A stretch of DNA of 64,000 nt from Candidatus Dormiibacterota bacterium (GCA_003153505.1 PLZA01000065.1:29031-93030); one strand, 5' to 3'. Positions 22,101 to 33,505 are shown, counted from the stretch's first letter. The notes: generated by a model from the sequence alone, not told the origin. Numbers and translations: made by a program.

Positions 22101-22682
22101 ATGCCCCGTATGGTCGATTGCGTAACTCCTGCGCGTAGACCATCATCGAACGTGGCTGTGTCCGAAACGTCGCCCCCGTTGCGCGTGGTCGGCACCCCAG
22201 ATCGCGCCAACGACTGGGAGTCCGTCTACCAGGAGCATGTTGCTCCCCTCTATAGGTATGTCTACTCGAGGACCGGCAATACCCCCGACGCCGAGGACGT
22301 GACCTCGACGACCTTCCTGCGCGCGCTCCCGCGCCTCCGCTCCGACGTCTCCGCCGCCGAGATCCGGGCGTATCTGCGAACCACCGCCCGGAGCGTGCTC
22401 GCAGACGTCTGGCGCCAGCGCCACGGGACGGTTCTGATGGAGTTCGACGAGCAGCGCGATGCCGTCCAACCCGCCGACCGACAGGACGAGGTGGACGTCA
22501 GCCCGATCCTCGACGGGCTGCCCGCAAACTATCGCAGCGTGCTCGAGTTCAGATTCCTGAGGGGATACTCGATTCGAGAGACGGCTGCGGCGATGGGCGT
22601 GAGCGTTGCCAACGCCAAGGTCCTGCAGCTGCGGGCGCTGCGCCGAGCGGCGGCCACTGGAGCTCGTGATGTCGAAAGCTGA
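22101..22682 (+). CDS. ECF (sigma-70 family) RNA polymerase sigma factor
   Basis: Region 2 (YRYVYSRTGNTPDAEDVTSTTFLRA) and region 4 HTH (YRSVLEFRFLRGYSIRETAAAMGVSVANAKVLQLRALRR) are present. Confidence 0.8.
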   Translation: MPRMVDCVTPARRPSSNVAVSETSPPLRVVGTPDRANDWESVYQEHVAPLYRYVYSRTGNTPDAEDVTSTTFLRALPRLRSDVSAAEIRAYLRTTARSVLADVWRQRHGTVLMEFDEQRDAVQPADRQDEVDVSPILDGLPANYRSVLEFRFLRGYSIRETAAAMGVSVANAKVLQLRALRRAAATGARDVES

Positions 22683-23343
22683 TCGCCGCCTCTCGCGCTT
22701 CGTCCAGGCGCTCATCTCGAACCGGCGGCCGCCGCGGACACCGGCAGAGGACGATTCGGCAGCGATGCAGGTTGCAGCCCGGCTCCGGGCCGCCAATCCG
22801 GGTGGTTCGACCCCGTCACCGGCCTTCGTCGACAAGCTAGCCCGCCAGCTGCGCGAGGCGTCGGAGCACGACCCCGGATGGACCGAGGCGGGGATCCGGC
22901 GACGCCGTTTCCTGGTCGGCGGACTTGCCACCGTCGCCGCATCGGTGGCTGCCGGCGTCGGCGTCGAGCGCCTGCACGAGGTGTTGACCGAGCCGGCCAG
23001 TGGATCCGGCACGATTCAGCCGTACATCAGCGCCTGGGTGGCGGTCGCGACCGTCGACGAGGTGACCCCTGGCAAGATCAAGCAGTTCTCCGCCGGCGGC
23101 GTCCAGGGCGTCGTCTTCACCCTCCACGGCGAAGTCCGCGGCCTCAGCAACGTCTGCACCCACCAGGGGTGCACGCTCGTTCCCGAAGCAGCCCAGGGCA
23201 AGCTCGTCTGCCCGTGCCACCCCATGAGCTTCAACCTCACCGGAGCGGCGAACCCCGGCGACTACCGCCTGAACCCCCTGCCGGCGATCCAGACGCGGCT
23301 GAACGCCGGCCACGTCGAGGTGCTCGTCCCCGCCTGGACCTGA
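22669..23343 (+). CDS. putative anti-sigma factor with internal twin-arginine signal-anchor and extracytoplasmic Rieske [2Fe-2S] domain
   Basis: Start overlaps the sigma-factor stop. A ~75-aa cytoplasmic domain precedes a segment IRRRRFLVGGLATVAASVAAG, followed by Rieske ligand boxes CTHQGC and CPCH. Confidence 0.65.
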   Translation: MSKADRRLSRFVQALISNRRPPRTPAEDDSAAMQVAARLRAANPGGSTPSPAFVDKLARQLREASEHDPGWTEAGIRRRRFLVGGLATVAASVAAGVGVERLHEVLTEPASGSGTIQPYISAWVAVATVDEVTPGKIKQFSAGGVQGVVFTLHGEVRGLSNVCTHQGCTLVPEAAQGKLVCPCHPMSFNLTGAANPGDYRLNPLPAIQTRLNAGHVEVLVPAWT

Positions 23344-23486
23344 AGCCTGGCGCCAACGCGCGGGCTCGCTGCAGCAGCGTGGCTCGGCAATGATCCGGCG
23401 CCCTGAGCCGTCCGTACCAAGCGGTGACAGGGCGGAGACAAGACGGCCAACCGGATCGCCAACGACCGCCCCAGCGAGGTGTACAC

Positions 23487-23756
23487 ATGGCCAAGGTGAC
23501 ACGGCGGACGTTTCTGTCCACGACCGTGGGGGCAGCGGGCGGAGTGGCGGCAATGGGGCTGATCGCCGGGCCGAGCACGCTCGTCGAGGCGGCGCAGAAC
23601 GTCGCCGCCGCAAGTGACGGACCCATGTCGAGCGAGCCGATGACCGCGTATGTCCGCGATGCGGCGACAGGTGAGATCTCGGTGATGGTCGGCCATCGCG
23701 AGGTGGTCACCAAAGACCCGCAGCTCATCCGGCGTCTGCAGCGCGCAGCGCGCTGA
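23487..23756 (+). CDS. small Tat-signal protein (hypothetical)
   Basis: MAKVTRRTFLSTTVGAAGGVAAMGLIAGPS is a twin-arginine signal peptide. Mature part is about 55 aa. Confidence 0.55.
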   Translation: MAKVTRRTFLSTTVGAAGGVAAMGLIAGPSTLVEAAQNVAAASDGPMSSEPMTAYVRDAATGEISVMVGHREVVTKDPQLIRRLQRAAR

Positions 23757-23799
23757 TCCGCCGAACCCAACAGCATCCACAACCTCACGAGGGGTACAC

Positions 23800-25176
23800 A
23801 TGTCTTCGCATCGTGAAGCGCCGGGAATCTCCAAAGACCCGGTTGCAGACAGCACTGACCTTTACGCGTTCACCAGTCCTGATCATCCAGAGACGGTGAC
23901 GCTGATCGCCAATTACATCCCGCTCGAGGGACCTGACGGCGGACCGAACTTCTACAACTTCGGAGATGACGTTCTCTACGAGATCACCGTCACCAACGGT
24001 GGCACCGTCGCGGACGCGATCACCTACCAGTTCAAGTTCACCACCGAGTACACCGATCCCAACACCTTTCTTTACAACACCGGGCCGATCACGAGCCTCA
24101 CGAGCTCCAGCTGGAACGTGCGTCAGTTCTACTCGGTGACGCGGGTACGGAACGGCCACACCGAAGTGCTCGCCACCAAGCTCGCGTGCCCGCCGGTGAA
24201 CGTCGGCGTTCGTTCGACCCCGAACTACGGCGCACTGGCCCGCGCGGCGGTCCACCGCCTCGACGGTGGGTGGGTCTTCGCAGGCCAGCGGCGCGAGGGC
24301 TTCTACGTCGATCTGGGATCGATCTTCGACCTCGGCGTGCTGCGCCCGTTCCAGAACCTGCATCTCATCCCGCTGCCGGCCGTCGGCGGCGTCGACTCGA
24401 CGAAGCCGCTCAACGTGCACACGATTGCCATCCAGATCCCCAAGACGCACCTCACCAGGCACGGCGAGATGCCAACCGACCCAACCAGCGCGGACTCGGT
24501 CATCGGCGTCTACACCACGGCCAGCAGGCGCAAGTCCACCGTGCTCGAGCACGGCGGTCGCGCCATGGACGTTGGACCCTGGGTCCAGGTCTCGCGCCTG
24601 GGCATGCCGCTGATCAACGAGGTGGTCATCCCCATCGGCAAGAAGGACTTCTGGAACTCGACCAAGCCGAGCAGCGATGCTCAGTTCGTCGCCAACTACG
24701 CACATCCAGAGCTCGCGGGACTCCTGCCCGTGCTCTACCCGGGGGTCTTCCCGAACCTCGCCGCCTACACGCCCGCGCGGGCCGACCTCGAAGCGATCCT
24801 GTTGACCGGGATCCCGTCCGGCGTCATCGCGGGCTTCCAGAACAACACGGGGTCGACACCGGCCGATCTTCTGCGCCTGAACATGGCGATCCCCCCGGCA
24901 TCGTCTCCGAGCATCAACGGTATTCTCGGCGGTGACCTTGCAGGGTTCCCGAACGGGCGCCGTGTGTTCGACGATGTCGCCACCATCGAGATCCGGGCCA
25001 TCGCGGGTGCCACGATCCCCCTGGTCGATTCCACCTTCACGGCAGACGGCGCTGCCGGCCTGGTGAGCGACTTCTCCTCCGGGCAGTTGGGCAGCTCGGT
25101 GCCCGGTAACGGCCGGTACATCGATCACTTCCCATACCTCGGCACGCCGCACAACGGTTTCGACACCCCGAGTTGA
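23800..25176 (+). CDS. DUF4331 family protein
   Basis: Begins MSSHREAPGIS, which matches the DUF4331 family opening. It is 458 aa and has no obvious signal peptide. Confidence 0.7.
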   Translation: MSSHREAPGISKDPVADSTDLYAFTSPDHPETVTLIANYIPLEGPDGGPNFYNFGDDVLYEITVTNGGTVADAITYQFKFTTEYTDPNTFLYNTGPITSLTSSSWNVRQFYSVTRVRNGHTEVLATKLACPPVNVGVRSTPNYGALARAAVHRLDGGWVFAGQRREGFYVDLGSIFDLGVLRPFQNLHLIPLPAVGGVDSTKPLNVHTIAIQIPKTHLTRHGEMPTDPTSADSVIGVYTTASRRKSTVLEHGGRAMDVGPWVQVSRLGMPLINEVVIPIGKKDFWNSTKPSSDAQFVANYAHPELAGLLPVLYPGVFPNLAAYTPARADLEAILLTGIPSGVIAGFQNNTGSTPADLLRLNMAIPPASSPSINGILGGDLAGFPNGRRVFDDVATIEIRAIAGATIPLVDSTFTADGAAGLVSDFSSGQLGSSVPGNGRYIDHFPYLGTPHNGFDTPS

Positions 25177-25487
25177 TCGAGATCGAGTCCGCCGGTCCCG
25201 CCCCCAGCGGGCCGGCGGTCCTCGATATCGGTGAGGGGGCCGGAGCGCTGCTGGTGATCGTGCCCGCAGCGCTCCTCCACACCGAGATCGAGGTCAGCCC
25301 CGACGGACGCCCGGACGCCCGGACCCATACCGGGGTGCACGAGCGCCCGATGGCGGGCGAGCGTCTTGCAATCGCTCTGTTCCCGTCGCTCGACGCCGGT
25401 GGCTGGACCCTCTGGGGAGCCGCGCCGTGCATGACCCGCAGCATCGAGATTCTCGACGGTCAGGTCACCCAGATCGACTGGCGGTGA
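25173..25487 (+). CDS. hypothetical protein, translationally coupled to the DUF4331 gene
   Basis: A TTG start overlaps the DUF4331 stop (TTGA). GC3 is high. Confidence 0.4.
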   Translation: MIEIESAGPAPSGPAVLDIGEGAGALLVIVPAALLHTEIEVSPDGRPDARTHTGVHERPMAGERLAIALFPSLDAGGWTLWGAAPCMTRSIEILDGQVTQIDWR

Positions 25488-32215: not shown

Positions 32216-33505
32216 ATGAACACGGTCGAGAAGTACCGCCGCTACGTGAATACCAGCGCGCTCGCCGGGGTGGAGCCGATCACCGTGGAGAGCGCTCGCG
32301 GCGCGACGGTGACCGCAACCGACGGCACTGAATACATCGATCTCTACTCGGGCATCGGTGTGGTCAATACGGGGCATGTGCCGCCGAAGGTCGCGGAAGC
32401 AGCCAAGCGGCAGATGGACAAGGTCGTGCACTCCTGTTCGTATGTCTATCACGTCCCCGTCGTCGCCGACCTCGCGGAACGGCTTGCCGAGATCACGCCG
32501 GGACGCCTCCAGAAGACGTTCTTTGGGAACAGTGGCGCTGAAGCCGTTGAAGGCGCACTTCGGCTGGCACGCGTCTTCACCGGTCGCCGAGAGATCATCG
32601 CCTTGCAGGGTTCCTTCCACGGCCGGACCGCCGGTGCGCTCGCGGTGACCGGGAACGCCCTGCGCAAGCATGGCGGCGGCGCCCAGATCGCGGGGATCGC
32701 CTTTGCTCCAACGCCCAACCCCTATCGCTGCCGGATGTGTTCGGGGTCGTGCTCGCTGGCATGCGCCGACGCCGTCGATGACGTGATCCGGTACGACACC
32801 AGTGATGATGTGGCGGCGTTCATCATCGAGCCGATCATCGGCGAGGGGGGAATCATCCCGCTGCCGGAAGGCTATCTGCAGCGGGTGAAGGACATCCTCG
32901 ACTCGCGAGGCGTCCTGCTGATCGTCGACGAGGTGCAGAGCGGGTTCGGGCGCAGCGGCAGGATGTTCGCGGTGGAGGCTTCCGGCGTCGAGCCAGACAT
33001 CATGACCATGGCCAAGGGGATCGCGAGTGGCTTCCCGCTCGGCGCATTCATCGCCCGCGAGGACGTGGCCGACGCTTTCGAGCCGGGCGACCACATGAGC
33101 ACGTTCGGTGGCAACCCGATCTCGTGTGCAGCAGGCGTTGCCACGATCGACATGCTCGTCGACGAGCGTCTACCGGAGCGGGCTGCGCGGATCGGAGCCA
33201 CCGTCATGGCCCGCCTTGACGCGTTCGCCGTCGAGTCGGACCTGGTCGGAGACGTCCGCGGGAGCGGGCTGATGATCGGCATCGAGCTGGTGCGCGATCG
33301 GGTCACCAAGGAGCCGGCCAGCACCGAGGCGGCGGCCGTCAAGCGGCACTGCCGCGAGCGCGGTGTGCTGATCGGGGTGGGTGGGTCACTTGGCAACGTC
33401 GTCCGTGTTCAACCGCCGCTGGTGATCGGTGAGGAAGAGCTCGACCGCGCGATCGGCGTCATCGAGGAAGCGGTCACGAGTCTCGCCGCACAACCCGTCG
33501 GGTAG
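32216..33505 (+). CDS. class-III aminotransferase (4-aminobutyrate aminotransferase-like)
   Basis: GabT-like motifs are present (YIDLYSGIGVVNTGH, the PLP-Lys region MTMAKGIASGFPLGA). Confidence 0.85.
   Translation: MNTVEKYRRYVNTSALAGVEPITVESARGATVTATDGTEYIDLYSGIGVVNTGHVPPKVAEAAKRQMDKVVHSCSYVYHVPVVADLAERLAEITPGRLQKTFFGNSGAEAVEGALRLARVFTGRREIIALQGSFHGRTAGALAVTGNALRKHGGGAQIAGIAFAPTPNPYRCRMCSGSCSLACADAVDDVIRYDTSDDVAAFIIEPIIGEGGIIPLPEGYLQRVKDILDSRGVLLIVDEVQSGFGRSGRMFAVEASGVEPDIMTMAKGIASGFPLGAFIAREDVADAFEPGDHMSTFGGNPISCAAGVATIDMLVDERLPERAARIGATVMARLDAFAVESDLVGDVRGSGLMIGIELVRDRVTKEPASTEAAAVKRHCRERGVLIGVGGSLGNVVRVQPPLVIGEEELDRAIGVIEEAVTSLAAQPVG

Follow-up and report, generated by a model that had tools for sequence, protein, structure and literature searches.

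The 64,000-nucleotide stretch of DNA analysed here, from an uncultured soil bacterium of the Dormibacterota (the window, with positions counted from its first letter), contains, between positions 22101 and 25487, five open reading frames (ORFs) on the + strand, all pointing in the same direction. These encode an extracytoplasmic function (ECF) sigma factor, a 224-residue protein ending in a Rieske [2Fe-2S] domain, a small protein with a twin-arginine translocation (Tat) signal, a DUF4331 protein and a protein of 104 residues (Table 1). Those relatives to which their sources give a name are metagenome-assembled genomes (MAGs) of 'Candidatus Dormiibacterota'. The original prediction, made from the sequence alone, had treated the five genes as one tightly packed operon, in which the Rieske protein was a candidate anti-sigma factor and the small Tat protein a possible escort for DUF4331. 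The region is instead composed of two independent modules lying side by side, with no single conserved operon: a sigma–Rieske pair, in which the Rieske protein is a strong candidate for the anti-sigma factor, and a DUF4331 cassette.

All five genes are present where they had been placed, and family matches agree with the domains assigned to them. GC content at third codon positions is 0.81–0.86 in these ORFs, compared with 0.48–0.73 in the long overlapping ORFs of the opposite strand and the alternative frames, which identifies the + strand frames as coding. The predicted tight packing holds for the first two genes, where the end of the sigma gene overlaps the start of the Rieske gene by 14 nt, but a 143-nt gap separates the Rieske stop (23343) from the small Tat gene (23487). 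The view of the five genes as one conserved unit does not survive comparison with related genomes. Among 26 loci (the window and 25 others encoding full-length Rieske relatives; 20 are species representatives), 19 have different genes flanking the sigma–Rieske pair, among them the syntenic loci L001 and L007. Conversely, the DUF4331 cassette is found in other phyla with neither a sigma nor a Rieske gene, and the DNA motif that precedes the sigma operon is absent before the small Tat gene.

Table 1. Features of the two modules, with positions in the window
Feature	Position	Strand	Basis or remark
Conserved bipartite DNA motif GTAACTCCTGCGCGTA (GTAAC-N7-CGTA)	22122..22137	+	14 nt before the sigma GTG; putative autoregulated promoter
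ECF (group 4) sigma factor, 176 aa	22152..22682	+	Pfam Sigma70_r2, Sigma70_r4_2, Sigma70_ECF; TIGR02937 above cut-off
Rieske protein, residues 1-75: N-terminal cytoplasmic domain, presumed sigma-binding module	22669..22893	+	Conserved in all family members
Twin-arginine motif (R76-R79) and single transmembrane signal-anchor (residues 81-99)	22894..22968	+	Hydropathy, alignment
Extracytoplasmic Rieske [2Fe-2S] domain (residues 123-224)	23035..23343	+	PF00355, AF2, Foldseek
Ligand boxes CTHQGC and CPCH	23155-23172, 23209-23220	+	Within the Rieske domain
Conserved non-coding block before the small Tat gene	23391..23486	+	Almost no variation across 7 loci
Small Tat-signal protein, 89 aa, proposed DUF4331 escort	23487..23756	+	TRRTFLS…VEA signal; conserved C-terminal domain of ~45 aa
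DUF4331 protein, 458 aa, without signal peptide, beginning M-SSHREAP	23800..25176	+	PF14224
Third gene of the cassette, 104 aa; its TTG start overlaps the stop codon of DUF4331	25173..25487	+	Homologous to the N-terminal domain of 135-298-aa proteins beside DUF4331 elsewhere

The sigma–Rieske pair and its upstream motif

The sigma factor matches the Pfam families Sigma70_r2 (E 4e-10, residues 43-107) and Sigma70_r4_2 (E 8e-9, residues 137-182), with no further Pfam domain, and scores 56.6 bits against the TIGR02937 (sigma70-ECF) model, for which the cut-off is 42.9. Its reading frame is open from an ATG at 22101. The GTG at 22152 is most likely the true start, given that the sigma genes of relatives are called at 174-177 residues and that the conserved upstream motif would otherwise fall inside the longer ORF.

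The Rieske protein has the three parts originally proposed for it, a cytoplasmic domain of about 75 residues, a twin-arginine signal-anchor and a Rieske domain, as seen in alignment, hydropathy and Pfam matches. PF00355 is matched over residues 123-194 (E 3e-14, 53 bits; cut-off 20.3). The ligand boxes, C163-T-H165-Q-G-C168 and C181-P-C183-H184, are separated by 15 residues between H165 and C181, in agreement with the CXH-X15-17-CXXH pattern, and their columns are conserved. In an alignment of 42 full-length relatives (28-100% identity), R78, R79, C163, C168, C181, P182, C183 and H184 are invariant, and the distance from the first His to the second box is 13-15 residues, being 15 in most. The hydropathy profile contains a single hydrophobic segment (peak 1.96), preceded by the twin-arginine motif, and the position +2 after the Arg pair is Phe or Leu in 37 of the 42 sequences. 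The AF2 model predicts the Rieske fold with high confidence (pLDDT 94-98), and Foldseek matches it to soluble Rieske domains (E 6e-9), among them those of the Chlorobaculum bc complex, PetC3 and Rieske ferredoxins. The N-terminal part is modelled as three helices (residues 3-16, 27-42 and 51-67; pLDDT 70-86). Two cysteines beyond the ligands, in the xGC and CPC segments, are those that form a disulfide in Rieske proteins of the bc1/b6f type, which fits a domain working outside the cytoplasm.

The 25 related loci come from MAGs of Chloroflexota and Dormibacterota, with Limnocylindria and Dehalococcoidia among them; two of the bins bear the labels Acidoferrum and Steroidobacteraceae. Each locus has a homologue of the sigma gene (phmmer E 1e-28 to 1e-105) directly before the Rieske gene and in the same orientation, even at identities as low as 28%. 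The two reading frames overlap or abut, with overlap in the majority. The remaining neighbours change from clade to clade. This sigma factor is not encoded within 5 kb of the Rieske gene at any of 60 further loci holding other Rieske proteins from the same scan, and no other conserved anti-sigma candidate lies beside these sigma genes in the 26 loci. Together with the conserved Arg pair and cluster ligands, this pairing (25/25 against 0/60) makes the Rieske protein a strong anti-sigma candidate, as originally suggested. The role is well supported by context and predicted topology, and the protein would be expected to bind the sigma factor; the coupling of the two as sigma and anti-sigma factor we infer from context.

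Two loci contain stand-alone paralogues of the N-terminal domain, encoded between the sigma and Rieske genes (L016 4744-5004, 86 residues; L017 3489-3704, 71 residues) and having no membrane segment. The L016 gene overlaps both neighbours by 4 nt; the L017 gene shares 4 nt with the end of the sigma gene and stops 14 nt short of the Rieske gene. The existence of these translationally coupled copies indicates that the N-terminal domain is an autonomous module. They could represent a second, soluble anti-sigma factor or a decoy. In all loci of clade B, a conserved gene of 86-96 codons overlaps the end of the Rieske gene.

All 26 loci have a bipartite motif, (C)GTAAC(C)-N6-8-(C/G)GTA, a short distance before the sigma gene or its operon. 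The whole 64-kb window contains a single copy, against an expected 0.14. Positions elsewhere include L001 5443, L004 2901, L016 2640/4138/5671, L017 1211/2916/4371 and L024 513/2351; a GTATCC variant is present in L016 and L017. Start codons follow CGTA by 8-20 nt, and in several lineages by 8-14 nt with no Shine-Dalgarno sequence between. With the start codon so close, CGTA behaves as a -10 element would in front of an mRNA with little or no leader. The geometry of the motif is -24/-12-like and not that expected for a factor of the sigma-70 family.

The motif is not confined to sigma genes. It precedes cupredoxin genes in L024 (by ~45 nt), L016 (~240 nt) and L017 (~530 nt, with an ORF in between), and a DoxX-like gene in L016 and L017. 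In L002, L022 and L029 it precedes a gene for a CHRD-domain lipoprotein that itself lies before the sigma gene. This lipoprotein (L002 4982-5446, L029 3681-4154, and L022; clade B), the first product of a motif-driven operon, has a faint similarity to Cu/Zn superoxide dismutase. That the motif stands before all three kinds of gene suggests a regulon made up of exported proteins that handle copper or redox chemistry. In other loci, the neighbouring genes point to copper and redox functions and not to the iron control that the original prediction had also considered.

The DUF4331 cassette

The DUF4331 protein of the window matches PF14224 over its full length (residues 2-450 to profile positions 1-421 of 421; E 2e-134, 449 bits, cut-off 27). 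As had been predicted, it has no signal peptide of its own, its Ser-Ser-His start being followed by no hydrophobic N-terminal segment. The small protein was likewise correctly described as carrying a Tat-type signal: it has the motif T-R-R-T-F-L-S, a mildly hydrophobic stretch and the sequence V-E-A, and the Arg pair is kept in its homologues. Like the Rieske protein, it scores slightly under the cut-offs of the Tat hidden Markov models (14.6 against 22.7 and 15.6 against 16.7); its L095 homologue scores above the cut-off of a Tat model. In family searches only Tat-signal models match it. An identification as MelC1 was rejected, as the model match (E 0.016) covers residues 1-38, the signal region, only, and so was DUF6963, for which matches are limited to the signal region or to a single member. 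The 104-residue protein belongs to no Pfam family and has phmmer matches in L008-L010 (E 3e-12 to 7e-5) and also in L092. A weak match to it at 33220-33429 in the window is spurious, as this segment is part of an aminotransferase gene. The translation start contexts of the small Tat gene (23473-23489, GAGGTGTACACATG) and the DUF4331 gene (23786-23802, GAGGGGTACACATG) are nearly identical.

Of the 26 loci, the 7 that make up the closest clade (L011-L015, L005/L006 and the window) are the only ones with the cassette after the sigma–Rieske pair. The same genes stand upstream in L001 and L007 (for polyprenyl synthase, glutamate racemase, an acetyltransferase and a hydrolase), but these two loci lack the cassette. 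In other phyla, DUF4331 proteins with 67-71% identity to that of the window are preceded by a protein of 93-97 residues and followed by one of 191-298 residues, with no sigma or Rieske gene. The 93-97-residue proteins have the MAKxTRRxF signal of the small Tat protein and a conserved C-terminal segment, and the N-terminal domain of the 191-298-residue proteins is homologous to the 104-residue protein. L095 also holds a small Tat gene paired with DUF4331. Two cassettes stand in tandem in L092 (82-4874), the second being permuted (DUF4331, small Tat gene, third gene). The third protein of this permuted cassette has a His-rich, metallochaperone-like start (HSHEDGHSHNDG…GGHTHGG).

The single occurrence of GTAAC-N7-CGTA in the window is that before the sigma gene, and none lies upstream of the cassette. 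Since, in addition, linkage to the sigma gene is limited to one clade, membership of the cassette in the sigma regulon was rejected. The cassette is preceded by a block of about 95 nt (23391-23486) that hardly varies among 7 genomes with a protein divergence of 10-20%; the ~50 nt that directly follow the Rieske stop are variable, unlike this block. A TGATCC-N16-CGTACC sequence at its start (23391-23418) has canonical ECF-like spacing and is possibly a separate promoter. No covariation support for an RNA structure and no Rfam match were found for the block, and no terminators, sigma-70 promoters or Rfam families were found across 21.5-26 kb. As no terminator-like site lies between the modules, some read-through from the sigma operon is possible.

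Export of DUF4331 was assessed among the 5238 relatives found in a search of 1.84 billion representative proteins, of which the best 150 were inspected and 109 had an intact N-terminus. Within these 109, 75 carry a signal peptide of 20-55 residues (69 Sec-like, 6 with an Arg-Arg motif), ending in an AxA-type site immediately before SSHREAP, and 30 have no signal and start at M-SSHREAP; Ser-Ser-His are the first three mature residues in 102 (P0249-P0371). As most intact relatives carry a signal peptide ending at SSHREAP, the family is considered basically extracytoplasmic. A small Tat gene adjoins every signal-less DUF4331 gene with a readable context (13 loci with 14 cassettes, from several lineages). 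At two loci with signal-bearing DUF4331, L091 and L093, no such gene was called beside it, as judged from gene lists and not from a homology search of the two loci, the upstream sequence of L093 being only 367 nt long. These comparisons lend support to the Tat hitch-hiking originally suggested, and the signal-less DUF4331 protein is most likely carried across the membrane by the small Tat protein. The evidence is gene adjacency plus two negative-control loci, a small sample, and no fusion of DUF4331 to a small Tat protein occurs among the 150 representatives inspected; both points count against escort.

The absence of a fused form would also be expected if signal-less DUF4331 stayed in the cytoplasm and the small Tat protein were exported independently, as a secreted peptide or with another partner. 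The third cassette protein is itself signal-less and looks cytoplasmic, and one such protein has a His-rich N-terminus resembling those of cytoplasmic metallochaperones. This alternative is a reasonable one, though doubtful: the exported relatives are cleaved exactly where the signal-less forms begin, and the small Tat gene stays beside signal-less copies even when the cassette is permuted. With regard to function, the mature SSHREAP N-terminus, if free, resembles the X-X-His motif that binds Cu(II) and Ni(II) (ATCUN), and D13, D17 and D20 are conserved at 93% or more. DUF4331 is probably a metal-binding family.

Proposed mechanism and alternatives

The following mechanism is proposed for the sigma–Rieske pair. 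The 224-residue protein would be a single-pass membrane protein whose N-terminal 75 residues hold the sigma factor in the cytoplasm. The Rieske cluster would be inserted in the cytoplasm before export, and the internal twin-arginine signal-anchor, itself uncleaved, would send the folded, cluster-loaded domain through the Tat pathway. Once exposed, the Rieske domain would act as a sensor, such that a redox change or loss of the cluster (through oxidants, copper or iron shortage) destabilises the anti-sigma factor and releases the sigma factor, most likely through proteolysis of the anti-sigma factor. Free sigma factor would then transcribe its own operon from GTAAC-N7-CGTA and, in other genomes, the genes for cupredoxins, the CHRD lipoprotein and DoxX-like proteins. 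In the second module (23391-25487), the small Tat protein would ferry DUF4331 by hitch-hiking. The probability of the sigma–Rieske mechanism as a whole, with a redox- or cluster-sensing outer domain, is estimated at roughly 0.65.

Several observations weigh against this mechanism. The N-terminal domain resembles no known anti-sigma factor: no Pfam family matches it at E<=0.1 in 18 members (the FecR/DUF4880, zf-HC2, RskA and RseA models included), a profile search of all sequences in the PDB returned nothing relevant, a fold search with the 75 residues found no known anti-sigma domain, and hhalign comparison with the N-termini of FecR and RseA found no similarity. It contains no Cys or His at all and hence no HxxxCxxC zinc motif. 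The only hint of such a role is the NCBIfam 'anti-sigma factor' model NF052375, which matches 3 of the 18 members, far under its cut-off (best E 7e-5). If the anti-sigma role is true, the sigma-binding domain is thus of an unclassified type. The Rieske domain itself is not uniform, as five of the six Cys/His positions of the cluster and disulfide are invariant and the sixth, H165, is found in 39 of the 42 sequences, being replaced by Asp in P0075, P0077 and P0078 (L007, L001). With the other positions kept, the cluster may be altered or abolished in these proteins. The variants (CTDQGC, CSDLPC) comprise a subclade at the genomic position of the window and one member of clade B (L022). ECF promoters have an AAC-type -35 and a CGT-type -10 element 16-17 nt apart. 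The GTAAC and CGTA half-sites resemble these elements but are 7 nt apart, and in the 26 operons the usual -35 distance from CGTA, 16-17 nt, is occupied by nothing conserved; assignment of the motif as the promoter of this sigma factor is uncertain because of this spacing. Finally, the sensed signal and the means of release are guesses.

It is interesting to consider a more specific version, in which Tat proofreading is the input. Only cluster-loaded anti-sigma factor would be inserted and stabilised. The sigma factor would be set free when Fe-S assembly fails, or when copper or oxidants damage the exposed cluster, and it would act at GTAAC-N7-CGTA promoters, with half-sites one helical turn closer than in any described promoter of the sigma-70 family, to give leaderless mRNAs. 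The conjunction of these proposals is improbable.

The lack of any match between the N-terminal domain and anti-sigma families could also reflect a protein that is not a regulator. The Rieske protein might be a co-transcribed target or effector, such as a membrane-anchored electron carrier working with cupredoxins, its N-terminal domain serving anchoring or assembly and the sigma factor being controlled by other means. Cupredoxins are natural redox partners of Rieske proteins and are encoded nearby in L016, L017 and L024, and the closest folds are those of electron-transfer Rieske proteins. An effector would not be expected to keep so strict a pairing with the sigma gene, mostly with overlapping frames, while other neighbours change, and a conserved 75-residue cytoplasmic domain ahead of a signal-anchor is how FecR and membrane anti-sigma factors are normally built. 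As these sigma genes also have no other conserved anti-sigma candidate beside them, an effector role, although the main alternative, is unlikely.

A second possibility retains sigma binding by the Rieske protein and makes the outer domain a scaffold that docks an exported, signal-carrying partner, or has the protein act in a pro-sigma manner. FecR provides the precedent, being both anti-sigma and pro-sigma and receiving its signal through a partner (PMC12036975). The three Asp variants would be in keeping with cluster chemistry that is dispensable in some members, and the conserved gene after the Rieske gene in clade B could supply a partner. Across clades, however, no partner gene is conserved, and the invariance of five of six cluster and disulfide positions down to 28% identity argues for a functional cluster; this alternative is judged quite unlikely. 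That the protein is a respiratory bc1/b6f Rieske subunit merely neighbouring a sigma gene, the reading against which the original prediction had set its own, is very improbable: the database names seen for relatives are all 'cytochrome b6-f complex iron-sulfur subunit' (JGI), 'Rieske (2Fe-2S) protein' or 'nitrite reductase/ring-hydroxylating ferredoxin subunit', and the best NCBIfam matches are named as b6f/bc1 Rieske subunits, but these models, with cut-offs of 97-275 bits, give scores of 24-30 and align to only ~45 residues at the cluster boxes (~150-199), no cytochrome b gene adjoins the Rieske gene in the 26 loci, and the N-terminal domain and sigma pairing are specific to this Rieske family.

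Relation to known systems

ECF sigma/anti-sigma pairs are a major route by which bacteria sense conditions outside the membrane, and a confirmed Rieske anti-sigma factor would show how transcription can respond directly to envelope redox state, copper stress or the supply of Fe-S clusters. Such a factor would also represent a new anti-sigma domain that current models miss, in Dormibacterota and Chloroflexota, phyla that are abundant in soil and peat and have almost no genetics. DUF4331, a family of more than 5000 representative clusters with no mention in the searched literature, gains its first functional leads, being apparently extracytoplasmic with a conserved Ser-Ser-His mature N-terminus, and one of its subfamilies probably relies on a dedicated Tat escort.

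Hitch-hiker pairs in which a Tat signal is shared include MelC1 and MelC2 of tyrosinase and the small and large subunits of [NiFe] hydrogenases. In FAD-glucose dehydrogenase, the small gamma subunit carries the Tat signal and escorts its signal-less alpha partner (PMC6719666; PMC12036975). The small Tat protein described here resembles known escorts in its signal peptide only, and would form a complex with DUF4331. The arrangement is the same, in that the only Tat signal is on a small protein encoded beside a signal-less partner working outside the cytoplasm.

Among Tat-exported Rieske proteins (the bc1/b6f subunits, PetC3 and the small subunit of arsenite oxidase), the CxHxGC…CPCH ligands, disulfide cysteines, uncleaved twin-arginine signal-anchor and fold are all shared with the protein of the window. 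In contrast, those proteins have no cytoplasmic extension before the Arg pair and no sigma partner, and the Rieske gene described here has no adjacent gene for cytochrome b or a catalytic partner.

A wide variety of outer sensor domains is known among membrane anti-sigma factors. The class I and zinc anti-sigma factors (RsrA, RslA, RskA, ChrR, RseA, RsiW) are co-transcribed, and often translationally coupled, with their ECF sigma factors, and the membrane-bound ones share with the Rieske protein an N-in orientation, a helical cytoplasmic domain of 70-90 residues, one transmembrane segment and an extracytoplasmic sensor. They differ in having a four-helix domain, where three helices are predicted here, and in that the redox cofactor of the Rieske protein would lie outside the cell and not in the sigma-binding domain. 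Dependence of anti-sigma activity on a [2Fe-2S] cluster has been reported for RsmA of S. coelicolor and RshA of M. tuberculosis (PMC3427169). In these proteins the cluster is cytoplasmic, ligated by cysteines and part of the sigma-binding region, in contrast to a Cys2His2 Rieske centre in an exported domain; RsmA, in addition, is a HATPase_c-type protein that acts on a non-ECF sigma factor. In the searched literature, which did not extend to the supplementary tables of the ECF classification, no paper was found to link anti-sigma factors with a Rieske domain or to describe one with such a domain on its outer side. An anti-sigma factor with an Fe-S centre exposed on the outer face has no earlier description that we found, the known redox-sensitive ones carrying their zinc or Fe-S site in the cytoplasm.

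The closest parallel in topology is the FecI/FecR ferric-citrate system. FecR of E. coli is inserted by the Tat pathway, which exports its folded outer domain, by means of an Arg pair at residues 79-80 (PMC12036975). Both systems combine an ECF sigma factor with a single-pass regulator in which a cytoplasmic N-terminus of ~78 residues is followed by an internal Arg pair (R79-R80 in FecR, R78-R79 here) and a transmembrane segment. No sequence similarity between the two N-termini was found, either by direct comparison or as a Pfam FecR/DUF4880 match. In place of an outer domain of the FecR/STN-interacting type, the protein of the window has a Rieske Fe-S domain, no TonB-dependent receptor is encoded nearby, and the host belongs to the Dormibacterota. 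If confirmed, the Rieske protein would be the second Tat-dependent sigma regulator beside FecR, and one with a clear reason for using Tat.

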